Notes under the pieces: generated by a model
The model's input: only the letters and a program-made list of their open reading frames with translations
Told to the model about the DNA's origin: nothing
Database searches by the model: none
Part shown: piece after piece, positions 3,944 to 17,567 of the stretch
Layout of the letters: each line of letters begins with the position of its first letter
Numbering within the stretch: position 1 is the stretch's first letter
IMG/VR virus record: IMGVR_UViG_2734482774_000015
Length of the DNA stretch: 18,985 bases
Direction: 5' to 3' (one strand)
Source of the DNA: a virus
Lineage: Duplodnaviria; Heunggongvirae; Uroviricota; Caudoviricetes
Program-made: the position numbers and the translations under genes

Positions 3944-4408
3944 TTACTTTAAACACTGTTCGGTTATGTATTGCTGAGCACCTTCAAGTTGGGCCTGCAT
4001 CATTACCAGTCGTTCCCGGAGGGTGAAATAATCCCGTTCAGCGGTGTCTGCCAGTCGGGGGGAGGCTGCATTATCCACGCCGGAGGCGGTGGTGGCTTCA
4101 CGCACTGACTGACAGACTGCTTTGATGTGCAACCGACGACGACCAGCGGCAACATCATCACGCAGAGCATCATTTTCAGCTTTCGCATCAGCTAACTCCT
4201 TCGTGTATTTTGCATCGAGCGCAGCAACATCACGCTGACGCATCTGCATGTCAGTAATTGCCGCGTTCGCCAGCTTCAGTTCTCTGGCATTTTTGTCGCG
4301 CTGGGCTTTGTAGGTAATGGCGTTATCACGGTAATGATTAACAGCCCATGACAGGCAGACGATGATGCAGATAACCAGAGCGGAGATAATCGCGGTTACT
4401 CTGTTCAT
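3944..4408 (-). CDS. rzpD: Rz-type i-spanin (154 aa)
   Basis: N-terminal TM segment ([20 protein letters not shown]) followed by a coiled-coil-like charged region. Its start overlaps the endolysin stop (ATGA). Matches DLP12 RzpD as recalled. Confidence 0.85.
4003..4188 (-). CDS. rzoD: Rz1-type o-spanin lipoprotein, embedded in the +1 frame of Rz (61 aa)
   Basis: Lipobox LVVVGC followed by a proline-rich segment ([15 protein letters not shown]), entirely inside the Rz gene. Confidence 0.85.
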
Positions 4409-4902
4409 TGCTGACCCCACAAACAGATTTCACGCTCAATCTCACGACGAGTCATGAGACCTTTCCATTGCTTACCGCCAGCATATGTCCAGCGACGTAG
4501 CTGATCACATGCGCCTTTGATATCGCCCTGGTTTATTTTGCGAAGAAGCGTCGATGTTCTGAAATTGCCAGCACCCACGTTGTAAACGAATGAGTAAAGA
4601 GCGCCGCGCATTGTTTCCGGTATATCGACTTTGATGTACGGGTTAATTTGTCTGGCGACCGTGGCAAGGTCTTTATTCAGGAGGGCTTTGCATTCTGCTT
4701 TGGTATACGTTTTACCGGGAATGATGTCTTTTCCTGTATGCCCGTGACATACAGTCCATACACCAACAATATCTTTGTATGGTATGTAGCTGACACCTTC
4801 CAGACCATCGTTACCACTTGGGCCAGTAATTAACACTGATGCTATAGCAATTGCTCCGCCACCAATAGCAGCAGCAACGGCTTTTCGTAATGATGGAGGC
4901 AT
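4405..4902 (-). CDS. rrrD: SAR endolysin, T4-lysozyme family (165 aa)
   Basis: N-terminal Gly/Ala-rich weakly hydrophobic signal-anchor-release segment ([20 protein letters not shown]) followed by a lysozyme-like body. Matches DLP12 RrrD / phage 21 R as recalled. Confidence 0.9.
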
Positions 4903-8394: not shown

Positions 8395-8849
8395 TACGCC
8401 TCCTGCTTGTCACGGAGCTGCTGGAACTCGCAGCTCTGCGGAATAGTCAGATGGCAGCCAATATTCACCGCCCAGGCTTCAACCTTACACAGGAAGACAT
8501 ACATCTCTCCGGTATCAAGATCGGAGGTATGGCGTAACGACTGGATAGTGGTGATATCACCGGTTACGACATCAACCAGGTCTTTGGTTTCATAACCGAG
8601 ATATGTGTGTTTGAGAGCATCTTTTACCCAAGCTGGAGTGGCGAACGTTTTACCCCTGCTGATGAGGTATTCACTGATTTCGCTGTACCACATGTGGCTG
8701 AGTGCATTCTGGGAAAGACTGCGTTTCTCACGCCACGGTTTAAGCACCATGCGAAAGCATTTGCCCTCCTCCAGATAAGGCTGGATCTGCCGACCGATAG
8801 CGGTGAAGTTACCGCGATGTAATTTTATGCCGTCTTGTGGGAGGTTCAC
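8394..8849 (-). CDS. ybcN: NinB-position protein YbcN (151 aa), GTG start
   Basis: [57 protein letters not shown]..., recognised as DLP12 YbcN. Confidence 0.85.
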
Positions 8850-9096
8850 GCTTCACCTCCGCAGAGGCCAAACGCTGGATGCAAAAAATCGCAGGTGCAT
8901 TTCTGCATCTGTGAATGGAGAAGATAGGTTGGTTTGTATGTGCGCATAACCCCAAATCTTCATACGTTACGGTATCAAGGTAATAATCACTATTTACCTT
9001 TAGCCATTCAGTAATAAGCCTTCTCTGGCGGTTTAATGAATCACCAGACATCTGACCTGGTGATGAAAATCGCATATATGCTATGGCTTTTTTCAT
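8809..9096 (-). pseudogene. ybcK: Serine recombinase (YbcK-like) N-terminal remnant: about 49 homologous codons, then unrelated sequence
   Basis: [49 protein letters not shown] carries the resolvase catalytic Ser/Arg motif. The remaining ~46 codons are not recombinase-like and overlap the ybcN start. A full serine recombinase would be several hundred aa. Confidence 0.7.
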
Positions 9097-9351: not shown

Positions 9352-9684
9352 TTAATGTGGTGTGCTTCGTGACAATAAATTAATAACCAACACACCGGCA
9401 CAAATCAACATCATGCCTATAATGGCTGGCAGGTCCAACCGTTGGCCGAAAAATCCCCATGATAGTAAGCTAATCAGGACAATACCGACTCCTGACCAGA
9501 TAGCATAAGCAATCCCTGTAGGAATATAAGCCAGCGTCTGAGCTAATAACCAGAATGATGCACAATAACAAATAATTGTACCAACAGATGGCCATAACCG
9601 TGTAAAACCTTCTGAAAACTTCATTAAGGTTGTACCAATGACCTCTGCAAGTATTGCACCACCAAGATAAATATAAGGATTCAT
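9352..9684 (-). CDS. emrE: Small multidrug resistance efflux transporter EmrE (110 aa)
   Basis: MNPYIYLGGAILAEVIGTTLMKFSEGFTRLWPSVGTI... with four TM helices and the conserved membrane-embedded Glu. The track ORF is extended 18 codons upstream. AT-rich flanks. Confidence 0.95.
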   Translation of the reverse strand: MNPYIYLGGAILAEVIGTTLMKFSEGFTRLWPSVGTIICYCASFWLLAQTLAYIPTGIAYAIWSGVGIVLISLLSWGFFGQRLDLPAIIGMMLICAGVLVINLLSRSTPH

Positions 9685-9751
9685 AGCATATTCTTTCCTG
9701 TTCAAACTGGAGAGAATTGTACTACAGTTTGAACTCAACTCACCTGTTTCA

Positions 9752-10054
9752 TCATTGTGTACCCATTGATGTTCTTTTATATACCCTCAATACCCGTTTC
9801 ATCGCGGCACTCTGGCGACACTCCTTAAAAATCAAATTCGTGCTCACCTTTCCTTCCCATTCTTCTCTGGTAGCGAACCGATAATACACCGTTCGCCAGA
9901 CCTTACCATCAACGACCAGGATTCCTGCCCGCGCCATTTTAGCCGCAGCCTGATTTATGCTGGTTACCGTTGCGCCTGTTACCGCGGCAACGTCCTGCGC
10001 ACAGAATTTCTTATGAGTCCCCAGGTAATGAATAATTGCCTCTTTGCCCGTCAT
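9752..10054 (-). CDS. ren: Ren exclusion protein (100 aa)
   Basis: MTGKEAIIHYLGTHKKFCAQDVAAVTGATVTSINQAAAKMARAGILVVDGKVWRTVYYRFATREE..., recognised as λ Ren. Immediately downstream of P. Confidence 0.9.
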   Translation of the reverse strand: MTGKEAIIHYLGTHKKFCAQDVAAVTGATVTSINQAAAKMARAGILVVDGKVWRTVYYRFATREEWEGKVSTNLIFKECRQSAAMKRVLRVYKRTSMGTQ

Positions 10055-10752
10055 ACCCTTGCTCCTTTCAGCCCAAACTTAGCTTTGATTTCTGCGATCT
10101 TCGCCAGAGCCTGTGCACGATTTAGAGGTCTACCGCCCATGACAGGAAGTTGTTTTACTGGTTCAGGTATAGCCTCACCACGGTTAATTCGCGCGGTCAT
10201 ACAGGCCAGTTCATCGGCAGCCTTGCGCCGTAATTCCGCGTCAGTCAACGCATTGGCCCGCATGTTCTGGTACAGGTTGGTAACCAACCAGTAGTGCGCG
10301 TTTGATTTCCATGGATAAGACTCTGCGTCCGGATACAGGCCACGCTTCCGGCAATACTCGTAAACCATATCAACCAGCTCGCTGGCGTTTGGCAGCCCGG
10401 CTGTAACGGATGTTTCTTCCCGGCACCAGGCAACAAACTGCCCGGGTGATGGCAGGAATGGTCGATTCTGCCGACGGGCTACGCGCATTCCTGCGTTAAC
10501 CTGTTCCATTGTGGTGATCCCGTTTTCCCGGAAAGCCAGCACCCACTGGCGGCGGATTTCGTTCAGTTCGTTCTGGTCCCGGTTAGCCAGGCTCGCCGGG
10601 AAAGTTGCCAGTAACTGGCTGAACACACCATTGATGATCTGCGCTACCAGCTGTACCTGCGGCTTTTCGTCGTACTGTTCCGGCATGTTATTGGCGATCC
10701 GACGCATCTGCTCACGGTCAAAGTTAACCATCTGTGCGGCGATGTTTTTCAT
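10051..10752 (-). CDS. P: Replication protein P, DnaB helicase loader (233 aa)
   Basis: MKNIAAQMVNFDREQMRRIANNMPEQYDEKPQV...AKIAEIKAKFGLKGARV, recognised as near-identical to λ P. Confidence 0.95.
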   Translation of the reverse strand: MKNIAAQMVNFDREQMRRIANNMPEQYDEKPQVQLVAQIINGVFSQLLATFPASLANRDQNELNEIRRQWVLAFRENGITTMEQVNAGMRVARRQNRPFLPSPGQFVAWCREETSVTAGLPNASELVDMVYEYCRKRGLYPDAESYPWKSNAHYWLVTNLYQNMRANALTDAELRRKAADELACMTARINRGEAIPEPVKQLPVMGGRPLNRAQALAKIAEIKAKFGLKGARV

Positions 10753-11678
10753 AAATCCACCCCATAAATCCAGTCAGTGTTTGTCAGGTCGAGTTTTGAT
10801 TTTCCGGCTGTCACGCCAGCCTGTTGCTTGTTACGGTTGATTTCGAGTTGGGTCCACTTGTCGCGGAGTTTGGCCGGACATAGCACGTTACCGGACCAGA
10901 AGTTGTCCTGGCATGCCCAGCGGAACAGCACGCACATGTCGCGGTGGTTACGTCCGTCACGTTCACGCATCAGGCGGATATCGTTAGCCCACCCTGCAAA
11001 ATTCGGTTTTCTGGCTGATGGCGCGATGGTCTTCACCATGTCAAACATCCACTCTGCGGCGGTCAGGTCTTCTGCTGTCCCCCACTTGCTGCCGCTCTGA
11101 ATTGCAGCATCCGGTTTCACCACAGGAAGATCGTTTTCTGGCTGGTCAGAGGATTCGTCAGAATTCTCGGACGAAAAAGGTTTTATATTGTCTTTTGTTA
11201 GTTTGTCTTTTGTGTTTACCTGATTCGGGTAAACGCCTTTACCTGATTTGGGTAAACTTTTCTTACCTGATTCAGGTAAATTTACCTCTTTCAGGTAAAC
11301 TTTATTTTTCTTACCTGATTCGGGTAATGTTGACCATTCACTGACCACATTATTAATGCCGGTATTCCGCCCGCTCTGAATAAGAATCCCACGCTTTACC
11401 AGAACACTTTTTGCAGCAGAACACTTGTGCGGCAATATCCCGGTCAATTCGGACAGTTGCTCGTTGCTCACCCAATCCAGTTTTTTATTAAAGCCATATG
11501 TTTTGCGCATGACAGCTAGGAAGACCAGAAGCTGGTGCTGTGTTAATCCGGCCAGCATCACAGCTTCCAGCAACTCATTTGCAATGCGCGTATAACCATC
11601 ATCGAGATCTGCCACGCGCGGCTCCTTTTGTGCCGCATCCGGCACTGGAAAATTGAATATCTCAGCAGTGTTTGCCAT
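10749..11678 (-). CDS. O: Replication initiator O-like protein (about 309 aa); origin iterons lie inside the gene
   Basis: N-terminal domain ADLDDGYTRIANELLEAVMLAGLTQHQLLVFLAVMRKTYGFNKKLD... resembles the λ O DNA-binding domain. The repeated LPESGKK peptides reflect the iterons. ATG at 11678 is preceded by GGGAGG. The track ORF starts 30 codons upstream at 11768, which remains an alternative start. Confidence 0.85.
   Translation of the reverse strand: MANTAEIFNFPVPDAAQKEPRVADLDDGYTRIANELLEAVMLAGLTQHQLLVFLAVMRKTYGFNKKLDWVSNEQLSELTGILPHKCSAAKSVLVKRGILIQSGRNTGINNVVSEWSTLPESGKKNKVYLKEVNLPESGKKSLPKSGKGVYPNQVNTKDKLTKDNIKPFSSENSDESSDQPENDLPVVKPDAAIQSGSKWGTAEDLTAAEWMFDMVKTIAPSARKPNFAGWANDIRLMRERDGRNHRDMCVLFRWACQDNFWSGNVLCPAKLRDKWTQLEINRNKQQAGVTAGKSKLDLTNTDWIYGVDL
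11215..11328. repeat. Replication origin: five about 19-bp iterons (consensus TTACCTGATTCGGGTAAAC, each an inverted repeat TTACC..GGTAA) next to an AT-rich tract (about 11175..11214)
   Basis: Direct repeats at about 11215-11234, 11238-11257, 11263-11280, 11281-11300 and 11311-11328, inside the O-like coding sequence, with the AT-rich stretch AAAAAGGTTTTATATTGTCTTTTGTTAGTTTGTCTTTTGTGTTT alongside, as in oriλ. Confidence 0.8.
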
Positions 11679-11764
11679 AATTCCTCCCGCAATGAGTGTG
11701 TTACGATTTGCACCTGAAAGTCGGTTCTGTTCCAGCAGACCGGCTTTCGCCATTTCTGAACCTG

Positions 11765-12304
11765 TCATATCGCCCCCAGCATGGTAGTAACCATCGCCAT
11801 CAATGGACCAGCCAGATCTGGGTCCACACGAAACATCGACACAATACCTTCACTAATTTCCTTCAGTTTCTGGTGGCGTGGTGCGTTGAGAATGACAGCC
11901 TGTTTTGCCTCACTGAGTTCCTTTTCCATTTCAGCCAACCTAGCCATGAAGCTATCCTGCTCAACCAGGTAACCGCGATATTCCAGCGGTAGTACCGCCA
12001 GAATTGCCGGGGTCAGTTCACGCACGTTATTTCGGTATTTTTCAGAATCGAATTTGTTATCGAGGAAGCGGAACAGCTTCTGGCGTGCACGGCTGACATC
12101 ATCAGGGAAATCGATGGTGCCGCCGCCCTGCTCCCGATACTCATTCACAATGAGTGTGGCAACGACATCCTGATTATCTTCAGCCGACCAAGCGCGGACG
12201 GCATCACGGATTTTTTCGTGGCCTGGCACCTGTTTTGTTTGAGAACGATTTATCACCGCAGTCGGGCTAAATCCGCTAGTCTGTTGGTATGTAAGTGGTT
12301 GCAT
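11765..12304 (-). CDS. YdaT-like protein in the cII position (179 aa)
   Basis: ATG preceded by AAAGGAG. Located directly downstream of the cro-like gene. Weak recalled resemblance to the Rac YdaT family (IRDAVRAW..., ARQKLFRFLDNK...). Function not established here. Confidence 0.5.
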   Translation of the reverse strand: MQPLTYQQTSGFSPTAVINRSQTKQVPGHEKIRDAVRAWSAEDNQDVVATLIVNEYREQGGGTIDFPDDVSRARQKLFRFLDNKFDSEKYRNNVRELTPAILAVLPLEYRGYLVEQDSFMARLAEMEKELSEAKQAVILNAPRHQKLKEISEGIVSMFRVDPDLAGPLMAMVTTMLGAI

Positions 12305-13398: not shown

Positions 13399-13520
13399 AG
13401 TGAGGCTAAAAAACAGTTACAGCAATAGGCCTGTTGTTTTTCTTTAAACACGCAGTGTTAAACCGCTCTTTGAGATGCGGAGTAATGAGATGGAAGACTT
13501 GAATCACATAAGGGTTAGTG

Positions 13521-14270
13521 ATGGAGTGCGTAGCGAGCAGCAATAGTGCAATACCTAATGTCGTTGAAGTAATACGTCGCATCAATGAAGGTTCCACTCA
13601 GCCATTTCTTTGCAAATGTGATGATGGGCAGTTGTATGTTTTGAAGTCAAAACCATCAATGCCCCCGAAAAATCTCTTAGCTGAGTTCATTTCGGCGTGT
13701 TTGGCTAATGATATCGGCCTTCCTTTACCTGACTTTAAAATCGTATTTGTGCCAGAGGAACTTATAGAGTACTCACCTGATCTGCAGCAACAAATTTGTA
13801 CAGGATATGCCTTTGCTTCATTGTTCATTGACGGTGCAATAGCGTTAACGTTTACGCAGTCAAGAAACGAAACGATCATCCCAGTCGAACAGCAAAAATT
13901 AATCTATGTTTTTGATAAATGGATATTAAATGCAGACAGAACGCTTACTGACAAAGGTGGAAACGTTAACATCATTTATGACATCAGTAACGATAAGTAT
14001 TATCTGATTGACCATAATCTCTCATTTGATCAGAATGCTGGACCTGAAGATTTTTCTGTGCACGTGTACGGCCCTGGTAACCGCAAATGGCAATATGATT
14101 TAGTGGATCGCGTAGAGTACCGCCAGAGGGTCGTTAACAGTTTACACAAGCTTCCTGCTATCCTTGACGAAATTCCAGAAGAGTGGATAGTAGATGAGGA
14201 GTTTTTACCTTTTGTCTGCACTACGCTAGACAAAGGTGATTGTGATGAATTTTGGAGCGCAATAGAATGA
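13521..14270 (+). CDS. Uncharacterised protein with HipA-like / kinase-like catalytic motifs (249 aa); first gene of the cassette occupying the rexA slot
   Basis: Intact ORF 120 bp downstream of cI on the same strand. Motifs FDKWILNADRTLTDKGGN and IIYDIS resemble the HipA_C catalytic and Mg-binding Asp loops. AAGGG lies 7 nt upstream of the ATG; an alternative GTG start lies at 13518. The family assignment is inference from motifs only. Confidence 0.65.
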   Translation: MECVASSNSAIPNVVEVIRRINEGSTQPFLCKCDDGQLYVLKSKPSMPPKNLLAEFISACLANDIGLPLPDFKIVFVPEELIEYSPDLQQQICTGYAFASLFIDGAIALTFTQSRNETIIPVEQQKLIYVFDKWILNADRTLTDKGGNVNIIYDISNDKYYLIDHNLSFDQNAGPEDFSVHVYGPGNRKWQYDLVDRVEYRQRVVNSLHKLPAILDEIPEEWIVDEEFLPFVCTTLDKGDCDEFWSAIE

Positions 14271-15094
14271 CAACTCCATGCCTATATAGCATCGTTCGCT
14301 ATGCGCCTTATGCGGAGACTGAAGAGTTCGCAAACATAGGCGTACTTCTGTGCGCGCCAAAAGAAAATTACTTTGATTTCCAGCTCACAAAGCGAAATGA
14401 CTCTCGTGTAAAGAATTTTTTCCATGATGATTGTATTTTCCCTGTAGCAAAAGACTCAATACAAAGAGAACTACAGTTCGCAAAAATGCATGCGACCCAG
14501 ATTGTTGGACATCAACAACTTGCACAATTCTTCAGATATTTTACAAACAAAAAAGAATCAATTTTTCAGTTCAGTTCTACGAGAGTGATTCTCAGCGAAA
14601 ACCCAAAAGAAGAGCTGGCCCGCATTTACAATAAATATGTAAACCACTCTGACTACACAAAAGAGCGCCGTGAAGATGTTCTAGCCAGAGAGCTAAAACG
14701 AAGTATCGATAGAATAGATGGATTGAAGAACGTCTTCAAACAAGCAACCATTGATGGGTATTTCGCAAAGTTCTCAATGCCATTGGTCGCCAAGAAGCAT
14801 GACAGGATCCAATGTGCCATCAAACCTCTGGCATTCACTCAAGCTGAACCAGGAAAAATGATGGAGCATAGTGATACTTGGGTGATGAGAATAACTCGAG
14901 CAGCAGAAGAAAACCTGCTTTCACTTGATGACATTTTATTCACAATTGAAACTCCTGAATCACCAAACTCAGGCCAAAGCAAAGTTATTGACATCATAAA
15001 GAGAACTATGGATGCTAAGAAAATAAATCATATACCTGCATCCAACCACAAAGAAACTATTGATTTTGCAAAAAAAATACTTCCCCAAGTTTAA
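14267..15094 (+). CDS. Uncharacterised protein with DUF3037-like N-terminus (275 aa); second gene of the cassette, translationally coupled to the first
   Basis: The ATG overlaps the upstream stop (ATGA); GGAG lies 9 nt upstream. The N-terminus CLYSIVRYAPYAETEEFANIGVLLCAP matches my recollection of the DUF3037 signature. Followed by a strong terminator. Confidence 0.65.
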   Translation: MTTPCLYSIVRYAPYAETEEFANIGVLLCAPKENYFDFQLTKRNDSRVKNFFHDDCIFPVAKDSIQRELQFAKMHATQIVGHQQLAQFFRYFTNKKESIFQFSSTRVILSENPKEELARIYNKYVNHSDYTKERREDVLARELKRSIDRIDGLKNVFKQATIDGYFAKFSMPLVAKKHDRIQCAIKPLAFTQAEPGKMMEHSDTWVMRITRAAEENLLSLDDILFTIETPESPNSGQSKVIDIIKRTMDAKKINHIPASNHKETIDFAKKILPQV

Positions 15095-15128
15095 AATTTA
15101 TTTTTGTATGTGATATTCCTTATTAATA

Positions 15129-15156
15129 ACCCGGCCACCGTGCCGGGTTTTCTTTT
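15129..15156 (+). terminator. Rho-independent terminator ending the cI-downstream cassette
   Basis: ACCCGGC-CACCGT-GCCGGGT stem-loop followed by TTTTCTTTT on the + strand. Confidence 0.75.
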
Positions 15157-15288
15157 GCCTCCCCTCATCACACAAACCGCTCAAAAAACCACCATAACCT
15201 CGCTTCAGTTATCGCTATGCGATTCAAGTCACAAAATAAATCCATCCTAAATACAACCAGTTATATCTAAAACAACCAATAAAACAAC

Positions 15289-15326
15289 TTTTGTTGTTGA
15301 CGGTAAAACAACTATAGTTTTAAATA
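15289..15326 (+). promoter_or_regulatory. oL/pL-like promoter-operator, a near copy of the pR core
   Basis: TTGTTGACGGTAAAACAACTATAGTTTTAAATA here versus TTGTTGACTAAAAACAACCATAGTTTTAATCT at pR. Upstream operator-like repeats ACAACCAG, ACAACCAAT and the palindrome CAACTTTTGTTG lie at about 15252..15296. Confidence 0.6.
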
Positions 15327-15723
15327 GGTTCATCGCAACAACACAACGATACGGCAACCACCTGATTCACCGTTGCGATGACCGCTTAGATCCGCAGTTT
15401 GAATTTCAGCAGGCTTCGGGGAGTGCGAGGGGTGAAACGGACGCGTGAACGTCGGTGTGACCAGCTGAAATCAACTCAACATTTCATACCTTAGTCGCTT
15501 CAACGAGGCGGCTTAGTTATGACAACCGGCGGCCATCCACCGCCTGAATACGCGCAGAAGTCTCTATATGTTCAGCAGCCCAGCTTCACAGCGATGCCAG
15601 AGTCTGTAGTGTCAGATGATGACCGTACTCAAACATCGGGTTGAGTATTATCTTACTGTTTCTTTACATAAACATTGCTGATACCGTTTAGCTGAAACGA
15701 CATACATTGCAAGGAGTTTATAA

Positions 15724-16005
15724 ATGAGTATCAATGAGTTAGAGTCTGAGCAAAAAGATTGGGCGTTATCAATGTTGTGCAGATCCGGTGTCTTGTCTCC
15801 ATGCAGACATCACGAAGGTGTTTATGTAGATGAAGGTATAGATATAGAGTCGGCATACAAATATTCCATGAAGGTTTATAAGTCTAATGAAGACAAATCC
15901 CCATTCTGCAATGTGCGAGAAATGACTGATACCGTGCAAAATTATTATCACGAGTACGGTGGAAACGATACTTGCCCTCTCTGTACAAAACATATAGATG
16001 ATTAA
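15724..16005 (+). CDS. ea8.5: Ea8.5-like protein (93 aa)
   Basis: Size and position (upstream of orf-55/xis) as in λ. Cys/His pattern (CRHHEG ... CPLCTKH) is consistent with a metal-binding fold. Preceded by AAGGAG. Confidence 0.8.
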   Translation: MSINELESEQKDWALSMLCRSGVLSPCRHHEGVYVDEGIDIESAYKYSMKVYKSNEDKSPFCNVREMTDTVQNYYHEYGGNDTCPLCTKHIDD

Positions 16006-16093
16006 ACCCAATATTACATAACAATCCTCGCACTCGCGGGGATTTATTTTATCTGAACTCGCTACGGCGGGTTTTGTTTTATGGAGATGATAA

Positions 16094-16261
16094 ATGCACT
16101 TCCGAGTCACAGGAGAATGGAATGGAGAGCCATTCAACAGAGTTATCGAAGCGGAGAACATCAACGACTGCTACGACCACTGGATGATATGGGCGCAGAT
16201 AGCACATGCAGACATAACCAATATTCGAATTGAAGAACTGAAAGAACACCAAGCCGCCTGA
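16094..16261 (+). CDS. Small λ-like hypothetical protein (orf-55, 55 aa)
   Basis: Below the track cutoff. Translation: MHFRVTGEWNGEPFNRVIEAENINDCYDHWMIWAQIAHADITNIRIEELKEHQAA*. Same position as λ orf-55. Confidence 0.65.
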   Translation: MHFRVTGEWNGEPFNRVIEAENINDCYDHWMIWAQIAHADITNIRIEELKEHQAA

Positions 16262-16278
16262 TGGCGGTTTTTTCTTGC
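16253..16278 (+). terminator. Terminator-like hairpin between orf-55 and xis
   Basis: GCCGCC-TGAT-GGCGG followed by TTTTTTCTTG. Confidence 0.45.
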
Positions 16279-16300
16279 GTGTAATTGCGGAGACTTTGCG

Positions 16301-16519
16301 ATGTACTTGACACTTCAGGAGTGGAACGCTCGCCAGCGACGCCCAAGAAGCCTTGAAACAGTTCGTCGATGGGTGCGCGAATGCAGGATATTCCCTCCTC
16401 CGGTTAAGGATGGAAGAGAATATCTGTTCCACGAATCAGCGGTAAAGGTTGACTTAAATCGACCAGTAACAGGTAGCCTTTTGAAGAGGATCAGAAATGG
16501 GAAGAAGGCGAAGTCATGA
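16301..16519 (+). CDS. xis: Excisionase Xis (72 aa)
   Basis: MYLTLQEWNARQRRPRSLETVRRWVRECRIFPPPVKDGREYLFHESAVKVDLNRPVTGSLLKRIRNGKKAKS, recognised as λ Xis. The 3' end overlaps int by 23 nt, as in λ. Confidence 0.95.
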   Translation: MYLTLQEWNARQRRPRSLETVRRWVRECRIFPPPVKDGREYLFHESAVKVDLNRPVTGSLLKRIRNGKKAKS

Positions 16520-17567
16520 GCGCCGGGATTTACCCCCTAACCTTTATATAAGAAACAATGGATATTACTGCTACAGGGACCCAAGGACGGGTAAAGAGTT
16601 TGGATTAGGCAGAGACAGGCGAATCGCAATCACTGAAGCCATACAGGCCAACATTGAGTTATTTTCAGGACACAAACACAAGCCTCTGACAGCGAGAATC
16701 AACAGTGATAATTCCGTTACGTTACATTCATGGCTTGATCGCTACGAAAAAATCCTGGCCAGCAGAGGAATCAAGCAGAAGACACTCATAAATTACATGA
16801 GCAAAATTAAAGCAATAAGGAGGGGGCTGCCTGATGCTCCACTTGAAGACATCACCACAAAAGAAATTGCGGCAATGCTCAATGGATACATAGACGAGGG
16901 CAAGGCGGCGTCAGCCAACTTAATCAGATCAACACTGAGCGATGCATTCCGAGAGGCAATAGCTGAAGGCCATATAACAACAAACCCTGTCGCTGCCACT
17001 CGCGCAGCAAAATCAGAGGTAAGGAGATCAAGACTTACGGCTGACGAATACCTGAAAATTTATCAAGCAGCAGAATCATCACCATGTTGGCTCAGACTTG
17101 CAATGGAACTGGCTGTTGTTACCGGGCAACGAGTTGGTGATTTATGCGAAATGAAGTGGTCTGATATCGTAGATGGATATCTTTATGTCGAGCAAAGCAA
17201 AACAGGCGTAAAAATTGCCATCCCAACAACATTGCATGTTGATGCTCTCGGGATATCAATGAAGGAAACACTTGATAAATGCAAAGAGATTCTTGGCGGA
17301 GAAACCATAATTGCATCTACTCGTCGTGAACCGCTTTCATCCGGCACAGTATCAAGGTATTTTATGCGCGCACGAAAAGCATCAGGTCTTTCCTTCGAAG
17401 GGGATCCGCCTACCTTTCACGAGTTGCGCAGTTTGTCTGCAAGACTCTATGAGAAGCAGATAAGCGATAAGTTTGCTCAACATCTTCTCGGGCATAAGTC
17501 GGACACCATGGCATCACAGTATCGTGATGACAGAGGCAGGGAGTGGGACAAAATTGAAATCAAATAA
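16497..17567 (+). CDS. int: Tyrosine integrase Int (356 aa)
   Basis: Full-length, recognised as λ Int with only a few substitutions (MGRRRSHERRDLPPNLYIRNNGYYCYRDPRTGKEF...HELRSLSARLYEKQ...HLLGHKSDTMASQYRDDRGREWDKIEIK). Confidence 0.97.
   Translation: MGRRRSHERRDLPPNLYIRNNGYYCYRDPRTGKEFGLGRDRRIAITEAIQANIELFSGHKHKPLTARINSDNSVTLHSWLDRYEKILASRGIKQKTLINYMSKIKAIRRGLPDAPLEDITTKEIAAMLNGYIDEGKAASANLIRSTLSDAFREAIAEGHITTNPVAATRAAKSEVRRSRLTADEYLKIYQAAESSPCWLRLAMELAVVTGQRVGDLCEMKWSDIVDGYLYVEQSKTGVKIAIPTTLHVDALGISMKETLDKCKEILGGETIIASTRREPLSSGTVSRYFMRARKASGLSFEGDPPTFHELRSLSARLYEKQISDKFAQHLLGHKSDTMASQYRDDRGREWDKIEIK

Follow-up and report, generated by a model that had tools for sequence, protein, structure and literature searches.

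We found that the stretch of DNA analysed here (the window, 18,985 nt) carries a lambda-type theta-replication origin located within its own initiator gene, in a lambdoid E. coli prophage beside ybhC, a reading to which we give a probability of about 0.9. Sequence comparisons indicate that the N-terminal domain of the initiator O and the iterons form one specificity module, distinct from that of lambda, and that the C-terminal domain of O together with P forms a second module, exchangeable independently, the two having been brought together by recombination at the conserved A+T-rich box or close to it. Far from being special as a mosaic, this is a very common module, annotated in named phages and present thousands of times among annotated sequences.

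The O-type initiator gene lies on the minus strand (10749..11678) and encodes a protein of 309 aa whose start is homologous to that of lambda O (MANTAE... versus MTNTAK...), with a GGAGG motif 4 nt 5' of the ATG at 11678. In the reference annotation, the 339-aa form of O probably has its start (11768) placed 30 codons too far upstream. The ORF matches the Pfam family Phage_rep_O (PF04492) over residues 21-115 (1.9e-34; 118.5 bits, cut-off 28.7), TIGR01610 phage_O_Nterm (83.7 bits, cut-off 45.5) and, at full length, phrog_277 'replication initiation O-like' (3.7e-163). Homology and an AlphaFold2 model predict an N-terminal winged-helix DNA-binding domain at residues 1-115 (11334..11678, minus strand). 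The model has a mean pLDDT of 78.7, exceeding 90 across residues 41-110, and contains helices at 72-79 and 83-95 and a beta-hairpin at 99-108; the helix at 83-95 is the predicted recognition helix, bearing the type-specific HKCSAAKS at 84-91. A fold search of this model against the PDB returned CRP/FNR/MarR winged-helix domains as the best but weak matches (E 4e-3 and above, TM 0.4-0.5), which support the predicted fold class without pointing to a specific relative. No solved structure matched O by sequence, even at E <= 1. The C-terminal part (approximately residues 169-309; 10749..11173, minus strand) is lambda-like by identity and is presumed to be the P-interaction domain, a role taken from the literature (PMC6022878).

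The five-iteron array occupies 11216..11327, within the O gene (gene nt 352-463). Each copy of the repeat, which is ~19-20 nt long, is a dyad TTACC-N7-GGTAA with a 17-nt core, and in gene order the cores of iterons 1 to 5 are found at 11311-11327, 11282-11298, 11263-11279, 11239-11255 and 11216-11232, with start-to-start spacings of 29, 19, 24 and 23 nt. An earlier note on this DNA had proposed a five-iteron origin inside an O-like gene, and the five copies are indeed present in the ORF; the repeat that it quoted, TTACCTGATTCGGGTAAAC, is the copy at 11216-11234. Elsewhere in the window no match to the iteron core was found when up to 3 mismatches were allowed (0.04 expected by chance), and the observed count of iterons was matched in 0/200 shuffles. 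Next to the last iteron there is an A+T-rich box, the presumed DNA-unwinding element (11174..11215). GC content is 25-30% at 11160-11219, with strong strand asymmetry, and the box contains two 15-nt tandem units, each including ACAAAAGACA on the gene strand (direct repeat D5, 11183-11212). The offset from the first nucleotide of the last iteron to the ACAAAAGACA box is 19 nt, and the same box at the same offset is found in lambda, 933W, P22, HK97, SEN34, GZ7 and most of the 65 O-like loci that constitute our comparison set. In the same way, the spacing of iterons 2-5 (19, 24, 23 nt) mirrors that of lambda ITN1-4 (20, 24, 23) and recurs in P22, HK97, SEN34, GZ7 and most of the 65 loci. All five iterons are at the same positions in 76/78 parseable IMG/VR loci of the TTACC type, a scan that covers near-identical E. 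coli copies and is thus informative on polymorphism of iteron number, not on diversity; the latter was taken from a scan of GTDB species representatives.

The comparison with lambda reveals both a shared plan and a different specificity. As in lambda, the origin is inside gene O and is built of dyad-symmetric iterons of 17-18 bp with a 5-N7-5 geometry, spaced ~20, 24 and 23 nt and followed 19 nt on by the ACAAAAGA A+T-rich box; O has a linker encoded by the iterons between its winged-helix N-domain and its C-terminal domain; and P, ren and a pO-like promoter over the O start codon are in the corresponding places. By contrast, the half-site is TTACC/GGTAA here and TCCCT/AGGGA in lambda (TCCCT-N7-AGGGA), as the earlier note had suspected; lambda has four iterons and our locus a fifth, 29 nt upstream; the recognition helix is predicted to start with PHKCSAAKS and not with PVKRCNEAK; and the place of lambda cII, 5' of O, is taken by a YdaT-family cII analogue. 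When the two halves of O were compared separately with lambda O, the N-part was merely 44.8% identical (48.7% for the domain of residues 1-115), whereas identity reached 91.6% from the NTKD motif on and 97.6% in the last 125 residues, so that the lambda-like C-terminus that the earlier note presumed is present. At the nucleotide level, identity to lambda rises from ~40-60% to 92-100% at ~11175-11190, a breakpoint which falls in the A+T-rich box. The 50-nt block that spans it (11143-11192) matches lambda at 42/50 positions, from ~11142 down 46-50/50 nt match, and identity remains high through P and ren to ~9790. Considering the N-domain, the clustered intragenic iterons and the A+T-rich box, the gene appears to belong to the lambda-type O initiator family (Phage_rep_O). 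Its half-site and helix start are not those of the rep-lambda ori-specificity group (lambda, 434, 21, 933W) and, as the identity of the N-part also differs, the locus would represent another specificity group of the same O family.

The P gene (10051..10752, minus strand) encodes a predicted DnaB helicase loader of lambda type. It matches Phage_lambda_P (PF06992; 8.4e-62, 208 bits) and phrog_109, and shares 226/233 residues (97.0%) with lambda P, in line with the likeness claimed before. The start of P and the stop of O share 4 nt (ATGA, 10749-10752), and the two genes would be translationally coupled. The homologous C-terminus of O and the coupled Phage_lambda_P gene would make them a lambda O-P helicase-loading pair. 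A ren-like gene (9752..10054, minus strand; phrog_142 'Ren-like exclusion protein', 9.8e-42) closes the lambda-like block, with 84-94% identity to lambda (42-47/50 nt) down to ~9790. On the opposite strand, a promoter scan identified a putative antisense promoter (11653..11681, plus strand; TTGAAT-17-CATAAT with an extended-10 TG) whose -10 hexamer overlaps the O start codon, and which we term pO-like by positional analogy. According to the primer sequences in PMC3349717, the -10 of lambda pO is likewise CATAAT and covers the start codon of lambda O. A stable hairpin with a weak U-tract (11716..11748, plus strand) lies ~30-60 nt downstream of this promoter and could be the terminator of an oop-like RNA. 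The region 11688-11765 (plus strand) folds at -24.1 kcal/mol (z = -2.58), and 1/200 shuffles folds as well. An Rfam scan of the whole window gave nothing at the gathering threshold, leaving the oop-like element without a family match.

By analogy with the model described for lambda (PMC6022878, PMC7466680, PMC3349717), dimers of O would bind the five dyad iterons through the N-terminal winged-helix domain, and the resulting nucleoprotein complex would distort the adjoining A+T-rich box. The lambda-like C-terminal domain of O would then recruit the lambda-type P, itself bound to the host DnaB helicase, and host chaperones would free the helicase so that replication begins. Iteron binding, unwinding, recruitment of P-DnaB and origin firing are thus inferred for this locus from its phage lambda counterpart.

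The coupling and uncoupling of both modules can be followed across natural relatives. In the comparison set of 65 loci, the half-site of the iterons goes with the predicted start of the recognition helix, whose first residues do not vary within any one iteron type, and the C-terminal class of O goes with the downstream partner, which may be lambda P, a DnaC-like loader or a DnaB-like helicase. In the 48 loci that could be classified, Cramer's V was 0.87 between C-terminal class and partner class and 0.54 between iteron type and partner class; these loci are not phylogenetically independent, and the linkage of iterons and N-domain would by itself produce part of the correlation. Every well-sampled iteron type occurs with 2-3 partner classes. 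For example, Klebsiella phage GZ7 and Enterobacter/Kluyvera prophages contain the same iterons as our locus (five at the same positions in GZ7, nine in Kluyvera) and an N-domain 75-84% identical, but they differ in having an unrelated C-terminus (~30% identical) and a DnaC/DnaI-type AAA+ loader. Conversely, Salmonella phage SEN34 has a lambda-like C-terminus and P, but HK97-type iterons (TTAGC-N7-GCTAA) and an HK97-like HHTH helix start. The idea, put forward in the earlier note, that the O N-domain and its iterons co-vary as a unit is therefore borne out by these natural recombinants, as far as their sequences indicate. The O protein of phage D2 was also considered as a natural specificity hybrid and was rejected, since its junction has a second copy of helix 2 and a frameshift, as in a disrupted gene or an assembly chimera.

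What reads the half-site within the N-terminal module is less certain. The best candidate is the segment with which the predicted recognition helix begins (residues ~82-91, HKCSAAKS), mutual information with iteron type being highest at O residues 82-84. It is possible, and we propose it tentatively at somewhat less than even odds, that the O family follows a short and largely modular code in which the first turns of this helix read the half-site, pairing HKCSAAKS with TTACC, H-x-T-H with TTAGC, PVKRCNEAK with TCCCT and PRQKVN with GTCAC. The co-variation of N-domain and iterons may instead reflect physical linkage and no helix code at all, specificity residing elsewhere, for instance in the wing or the linker that the iterons encode. 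In this sense, the iterons begin ~10 nt past the end of the N-domain coding region and would be inherited together with it, and the mutual-information analysis is confounded by phylogeny. However, the SEN34-like proteins are nearer to the O described here than HK97 is (62% versus 43% core identity) and yet both their iterons (TTAGC) and their helix start (H-x-T-H) are those of HK97, that is, diverged backbones share helix start and iterons; and HKCSAAKS is invariant in 14/14 loci of the TTACC type, including proteins otherwise just ~65-84% identical. We consider linkage without a code unlikely. Far less probable still is that the repeats are kept as a flexible linker peptide, LPESGKK, and not as DNA-binding sites, the true origin lying elsewhere. 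The repeat region does encode, between two folded domains, a segment rich in lysine and of low complexity, and the peptide repeats noticed earlier exist, with LPESGKK present twice (residues 118-124 and 134-140) and LPKSGKG once (142-148); nevertheless, the remaining two iterons are read in the other frame, as VYLKEVN and VYPNQVN. Five repeats translated in two frames into unrelated peptides (three of the form LPxSGK, two VYxxxVN) suggest that the repeat is maintained at the DNA level, and for this reason selection for the peptide was rejected. Moreover, every repeat is a DNA palindrome, iteron types with unrelated peptide products have conserved the spacing as well as the distance to the A+T-rich box, and the homologous repeats of lambda are experimentally established O-binding sites (PMC8022706, PMC3349717).

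An origin genuine by descent could also be an inert relic in a decaying, non-inducible prophage, which we regard as improbable. The prophage may be defective: only 1.4 kb separate int from the DUF3037 gene, compared with ~4.2 kb in a related prophage, the ybcK-like recombinase ORF is truncated (8809-9096), and past the lysis genes the window contains trkG-like and other non-phage cargo in place of head genes. In addition, O has a private substitution, S267C, where all the relatives compared have S. On the other hand, O, P and ren are full-length and near the population consensus, the five iterons and the A+T-rich box are intact at their consensus positions, and the repressor, cro-like and cII-like genes upstream are also intact. 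Besides, pR, O, P and ori are all that is needed for origin function in lambda-dv plasmids.

Several known systems resemble this locus. The closest are the Escherichia phages 4A7, Lambda_4C10, 1W, 3W, Perceval (Bievrevirus) and the PhiR series, with a full-length O 97-99% identical in nucleotides and the same five iterons. These phages have the same order of P, ren and emrE and the same immunity-region genes, and differ by a few substitutions, S267C here among them, their O being annotated with 339 or 309 aa. The Shiga-toxin phages 933W and P27 also combine a lambda-like O C-terminus with P and, as in our locus, a tandem duplication has given them more iterons than lambda (six in 933W, five here; PMC7466680), but 933W keeps the iteron sequence and N-domain of lambda while both are of another specificity type here. 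Among classical phages, Salmonella phage P22 (gene 18/gene 12) has the closest N-domain (61% identical over the core), a related half-site (TTTACC...GGTAAA) and the same A+T-rich box and spacing. It differs in a dyad 2 bp narrower (TACC-N5-GGTA versus TACC-N7-GGTA here), in an unrelated C-terminus and in its partner, a DnaB-type helicase (gp12) instead of P. For the origin of phage 82 (Moore, Denniston & Blattner 1981; Furth & Yates 1978), classical genetics is reported to show an ori/O N-terminal specificity unlike that of lambda and an O C-terminus that works with lambda P, the same architecture as here, and it serves us as a lead; the matches in the phage collection by megablast, blastn and tblastn included no record of a phage 82 ori. 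The cryptic prophage DLP12 of E. coli K-12 is probably related to phage 82, and the nin-to-lysis region of the window (ybcN-like, ybcO, rusA, Q-family genes and porin) resembles it. The iteron string did not occur in the searchable literature, where the ori comparisons of 1979-1981 are represented by the papers citing them.

The locus constitutes a textbook case of modular exchange in lambdoid replication regions, follows the classical view of O as a protein of two domains (PMC6022878, citing Furth & Yates 1978, Wickner & Zahn 1986) and matters little for discovery. Its relevance may lie in its abundance. The TTACC-type N-half is found in 2297/5426 complete E. coli genomes (42%) versus 1324 (24%) for the lambda type, and this prevalent type appears never to have been studied biochemically. 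As the commonest O/ori type of E. coli is not that of lambda, conclusions on cross-talk, replicative exclusion and anti-replication drawn from lambda and 933W may not transfer to it. Furthermore, the table of half-sites versus helix starts offers a cheap hypothesis on the specificity determinants of a protein family without a solved structure. If the proposed code were true, origin specificity, and with it the cross-talk or incompatibility of co-resident prophages, would be predictable from sequence and could be re-engineered by a helix swap.

The O-type initiator ORF, at 10749-11678 on the - strand, encodes a protein of 309 aa. PHROG 277 'replication initiation O-like' matches it over its full length, and it also matches Pfam Phage_rep_O (1.9e-34) and TIGR01610, the phage O N-terminal domain. 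A repeat search of the window found five 20-nt direct repeats at 11215-11329 (+ strand coordinates), each of them also an inverted repeat. The 17-nt core TTACCTGATTCGGGTAA, allowing up to 3 mismatches, occurs at only five places in the 18,985-nt window, all within O, where 0.04 matches are expected by chance and the count was never as high in 200 shuffles. Counted along the gene strand of O, the cores begin at nt 352, 381, 400, 424 and 447, and every one reads TTACC-N7-GGTAA. The earlier note had described LPESGKK repeats in the protein, and these are real: the iterons encode LPESGKK twice and LPKSGKG once, while the other two, in another frame, give VYLKEVN and VYPNQVN. Since the repeats are translated in two frames, the repeat is kept at the DNA level and not at the protein level. 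Among 78 parseable IMG/VR copies, 76 agree with the window in having five iterons and in where these lie; in one, a degraded gene, deletion of a 24-nt unit leaves four, and an early stop truncates the remaining copy. Across genera, iterons of the window type (type A) number from 4 (Xenorhabdus, Pantoea, Providencia) up to 9 (Kluyvera), so five is not a special number. The nine of the Kluyvera sichuanensis locus (L092, gene nt 354-560) are three copies of a 48-nt two-iteron unit. Trabulsiella carries seven iterons of the P22 type, and two Arsenophonus loci carry seven each, of type A in L106 and of the lambda type in L158; among the loci listed for iteron number (L092, L105, L106 and L158) the count varies widely within one specificity type.

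The start at 11678 is homologous to those of lambda, GZ7, SEN34 and P22 and is preceded by a GGAGG Shine-Dalgarno sequence. RefSeq and several phage records use an alternative ATG at 11768 (-), 30 codons upstream, which overlaps the stop of the YdaT-like gene; the resulting 339-aa form, whose extension (11679-11768, -) also spans an oop-like hairpin, is probably an annotation artefact. Antisense to O lies a sigma-70-like promoter (11653-11681, +; TTGAAT-17-CATAAT with an extended-10 TG), with its -10 hexamer exactly over the O start, as that of lambda pO is. About 35 nt downstream is a stable hairpin with a weak U-tail (11716-11748, +; z = -2.6). A search of Rfam gave no match to this element. 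Promoter and hairpin, which lie in the 86-nt gap that separates O from the cII-like gene, together resemble an oop-type antisense RNA. Codon 267 of this O (10878-10880) encodes Cys, in NVLCPAK; the residue is Ser in lambda, 933W, 4C10 and all seven cluster members covering the position.

The annotated lambda iterons (39034-39118) are TCCCT-N7-AGGGA, in agreement with the claim that the repeats of the window differ from them, and start 20, 24 and 23 nt apart; the box ACAAAAGACA starts 19 nt after the start of the last one. The same box stands at the same offset in the window, where start-to-start spacings are 29, 19, 24 and 23 nt. Iterons 2-5 are therefore arranged as in lambda, with iteron 1 as an additional copy upstream. 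The A+T-rich box of the window (11174-11215, about 40 nt, 25-30% G+C) shows strong strand asymmetry and two 15-nt tandem units, and its lambda counterpart is the 'high AT-rich' region (PMC3349717). One of the 78 IMG/VR copies carries a 15-nt duplication inside the box that yields the peptide TKDKITKDKITKD and a 314-aa O; thus the tandem unit of the presumed unwinding element is itself length-polymorphic.

We aligned the cro-to-ren segment of the window with lambda 37800-41200 in 50-nt blocks. Identity is about 40-60% to the right of about 11190, and 92-100% in nearly every block from about 11175 leftwards to about 9790, a stretch that takes in the remainder of O, the whole P gene (10051-10752) and ren (9752-10054); the exceptions are two blocks, within P and ren, at 78-84%. 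With the halves of O aligned separately to lambda O, the N-part is 44.8% identical (48.7% in the winged-helix core) and the sequence from NTKD onward 91.6%, rising to 97.6% over the last 125 residues. P is 97.0% identical to lambda P (226/233 residues). Both the C-terminus and P are thus as lambda-like as had been proposed and, the iterons not being those of lambda, the mosaic interpretation stands.

Iterons, O domains and partner gene were first compared among six reference phages. In Klebsiella phage GZ7 the iterons agree with those of the window in type, number (five) and position, and the N-part is 79% identical to this O; the C-terminus, at about 30% identity, is unrelated, and O is partnered by a DnaC/DnaI-type loader. 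In Salmonella phage SEN34 it is the C-terminus that is lambda-like (83% identity over the final 125 residues and 79% from NTKD), as is P (80%), but the iterons read TTAGC-N7-GCTAA, as in HK97. These two cases bear out the suggestion that N-domain and iterons move as a unit. In P22 and HK97, O-like genes are paired with DnaB-type helicases. The comparison was then widened to 80 loci, taken from a set with one genome for each bacterial species. Iterons were sought de novo in every locus, and BLASTP against references from lambda, GZ7 and P22 assigned the O C-terminus and the gene after it to classes. Sixty-five loci sorted into six half-site types: A, TTACC-N7-GGTAA (this window); B, TTTACC-N5-GGTAAA (P22); C, TTAGC-N7-GCTAA (HK97, SEN34); D, TCCCT-N7-AGGGA (lambda); E, GTCAC-N7-GTGAC (Enterobacter, Pantoea and Erwinia prophages); and F, CTCTA-N3-TAGAG (two loci). 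Nearly all 65 share the spacing (19 or 20), 24, 23 and the A+T-rich box 19 nt on. Every well-sampled iteron type occurs with two or three partner classes. The lambda-like C-terminus goes with P (9/9 loci), the P22-like with DnaB (20/21) and the GZ7-like with DnaC (15/18), and partner is associated with C-terminal class at a Cramer's V of 0.87, and with iteron type at 0.54, values and counts that are descriptive only because the loci are phylogenetically non-independent. In this descriptive sense, the O C-terminal class predicts the partner and iteron type does not to the same degree.

In Escherichia phage D2 (L008, 2001-2932), the first 246 nt of O are of the window type and the remainder lambda-type with lambda iterons; the junction duplicates helix 2 and shifts the frame, and the annotation gives two O CDSs there. 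Either the recombinant is dead or the assembly has joined two prophages. N-domains with the same identity to the query as that of lambda (48-49%) also appeared on short, low-coverage contigs of unrelated bacteria (L141, L142, L147-L151, L154 and L169; Bradyrhizobium, Pseudoxanthomonas, Leeuwenhoekiella, Neobacillus, Oceanobacillus, Paenibacillus, Ruminococcus and Amphritea), which look like lambda control-DNA contamination of assemblies.

An AlphaFold2 model of O residues 1-118, from a 32-sequence alignment, has a mean pLDDT of 78.7, above 90 over most of residues 41-110, with helices at 29-42, 47-63, 72-79 and 83-95 and a beta-hairpin at 99-108. As modelled, the N-domain is a winged helix-turn-helix with residues 83-95 as recognition helix. 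A fold search of the PDB gave, at best, weak matches to CRP/FNR/MarR DNA-binding domains, and a sequence search found no solved relatives of O. Across the 65 aligned N-domains the start of this helix is type-specific: HKCSAAKS in 14/14 type A proteins, which elsewhere are only about 65-84% identical; H-x-T-H in 14/15 of type C, the remaining protein having HRTH; PVKRCNEAK in the lambda-like majority of type D; and PRQKVN in type E. SEN34 and its relatives are informative: although in backbone they stand nearer to types A/B (62% identity to this O) than to HK97 (43%), their TTAGC iterons and HHTH motif are those of HK97. Mutual information with iteron type, a measure confounded by ancestry, is highest at residues 82-84. 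These patterns suggest that iteron specificity sits at the start of the recognition helix; the link is suggestive and not proven, since the iterons are physically linked to the N-domain coding sequence, which contributes to the association.

From the sequence anatomy and homologies observed here we infer O binding, unwinding and origin firing at this locus. By homology with lambda, O dimers on the iterons would form an O-some (PMC6022878, PMC7466680, PMC3349717) that would stress the A+T-rich box; the O C-terminal domain would dock the P-DnaB complex, and chaperones would then free DnaB. The half-site differs from that of lambda at 4/5 positions, so this O should be inactive on ori-lambda, and lambda O on the window origin, while P and the O C-terminus should be able to replace those of lambda and be replaced by them. 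The predicted split agrees with classical analyses of lambda-82 and lambda-phi80 hybrids, which, as far as they are cited in PMC6022878, describe the same division of O specificities in general (Furth & Yates 1978).

The window belongs to a lambdoid prophage that adjoins ybhC and has its integrase, of the lambda type, at 16497-17567. At the position of lambda rexAB, directly beside an S24-family repressor, it encodes a HipA-like kinase (PF20613) and a DUF3037 protein (13518-15094, +); the pair, which may be a toxin or defence pair, also occurs in the strain YA-1 related prophage and phage Lambda_4C10. YdaS-like and YdaT-like genes occupy the cro and cII positions of the immunity region, and O, P, ren and emrE are followed by a nin-Q-porin-lysis region, which we take to resemble that of DLP12, the cryptic prophage of E. 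coli K-12, then by a trkG-like gene and other cargo. The small multidrug resistance efflux gene emrE (9352-9738, -) directly follows ren as phage cargo; the same order in phages Lambda_4C10 and D2 indicates that inducible phages of the group carry it. A 95-aa ORF (8809-9096, -) begins like the ybcK serine recombinase (MKKAIAYMRFSSPGQ...), has no Pfam match and is probably a ybcK gene that was truncated or frameshifted. Past the lysis genes (lysozyme, 4405-4902; Rz, 3944-4420), the segment 651-3824 (-) holds three genes in place of packaging or head genes: one for a TrkH/TrkG-type potassium transporter, one for a ParB_N-domain protein and one for a protein that unites a TET-associated glycosyltransferase domain with an NlpC/P60 domain. 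From integrase to DUF3037 gene (15095-16496) there is about 1.4 kb, against about 4.2 kb in the YA-1 prophage (L009, 3925-8084), where the interval holds xis, exo, bet, gam and kil. The window prophage seems to have lost recombination genes and may be defective; if it is partly decayed, as it may be, its copy of the origin could be silent.

A search of the available literature did not find the iteron sequence. The full-length O is present at 97-99% nucleotide identity in 15 sequenced phages, including Escherichia phages 4A7, Lambda_4C10, 1W, 3W, Perceval (genus Bievrevirus) and the PhiR series; in all 15 it is annotated as replication protein O, with P as the next gene, and in Lambda_4C10 the order continues with ren and emrE as it does here. 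About 300 public contigs carry the exact 309-aa and 339-aa proteins, and the 90%-identity cluster 'replication protein (O)' that holds both has 7,825 members. Phage 82 may have this type of origin. What the earlier note observed is confirmed and its interpretation supported; the feature is known, an ordinary origin of the lambda O/P family that has already been sequenced and annotated. The one mildly new result is the link between iteron half-site and recognition-helix start, drawn by comparison. Of 5,426 complete E. coli genomes, 2,297 carry the O N-half with its iterons, almost always at 95-100% identity, and 1,324 carry the lambda-type N-half; the specificity type of the window origin is not that of lambda and is the commonest in E. 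coli.
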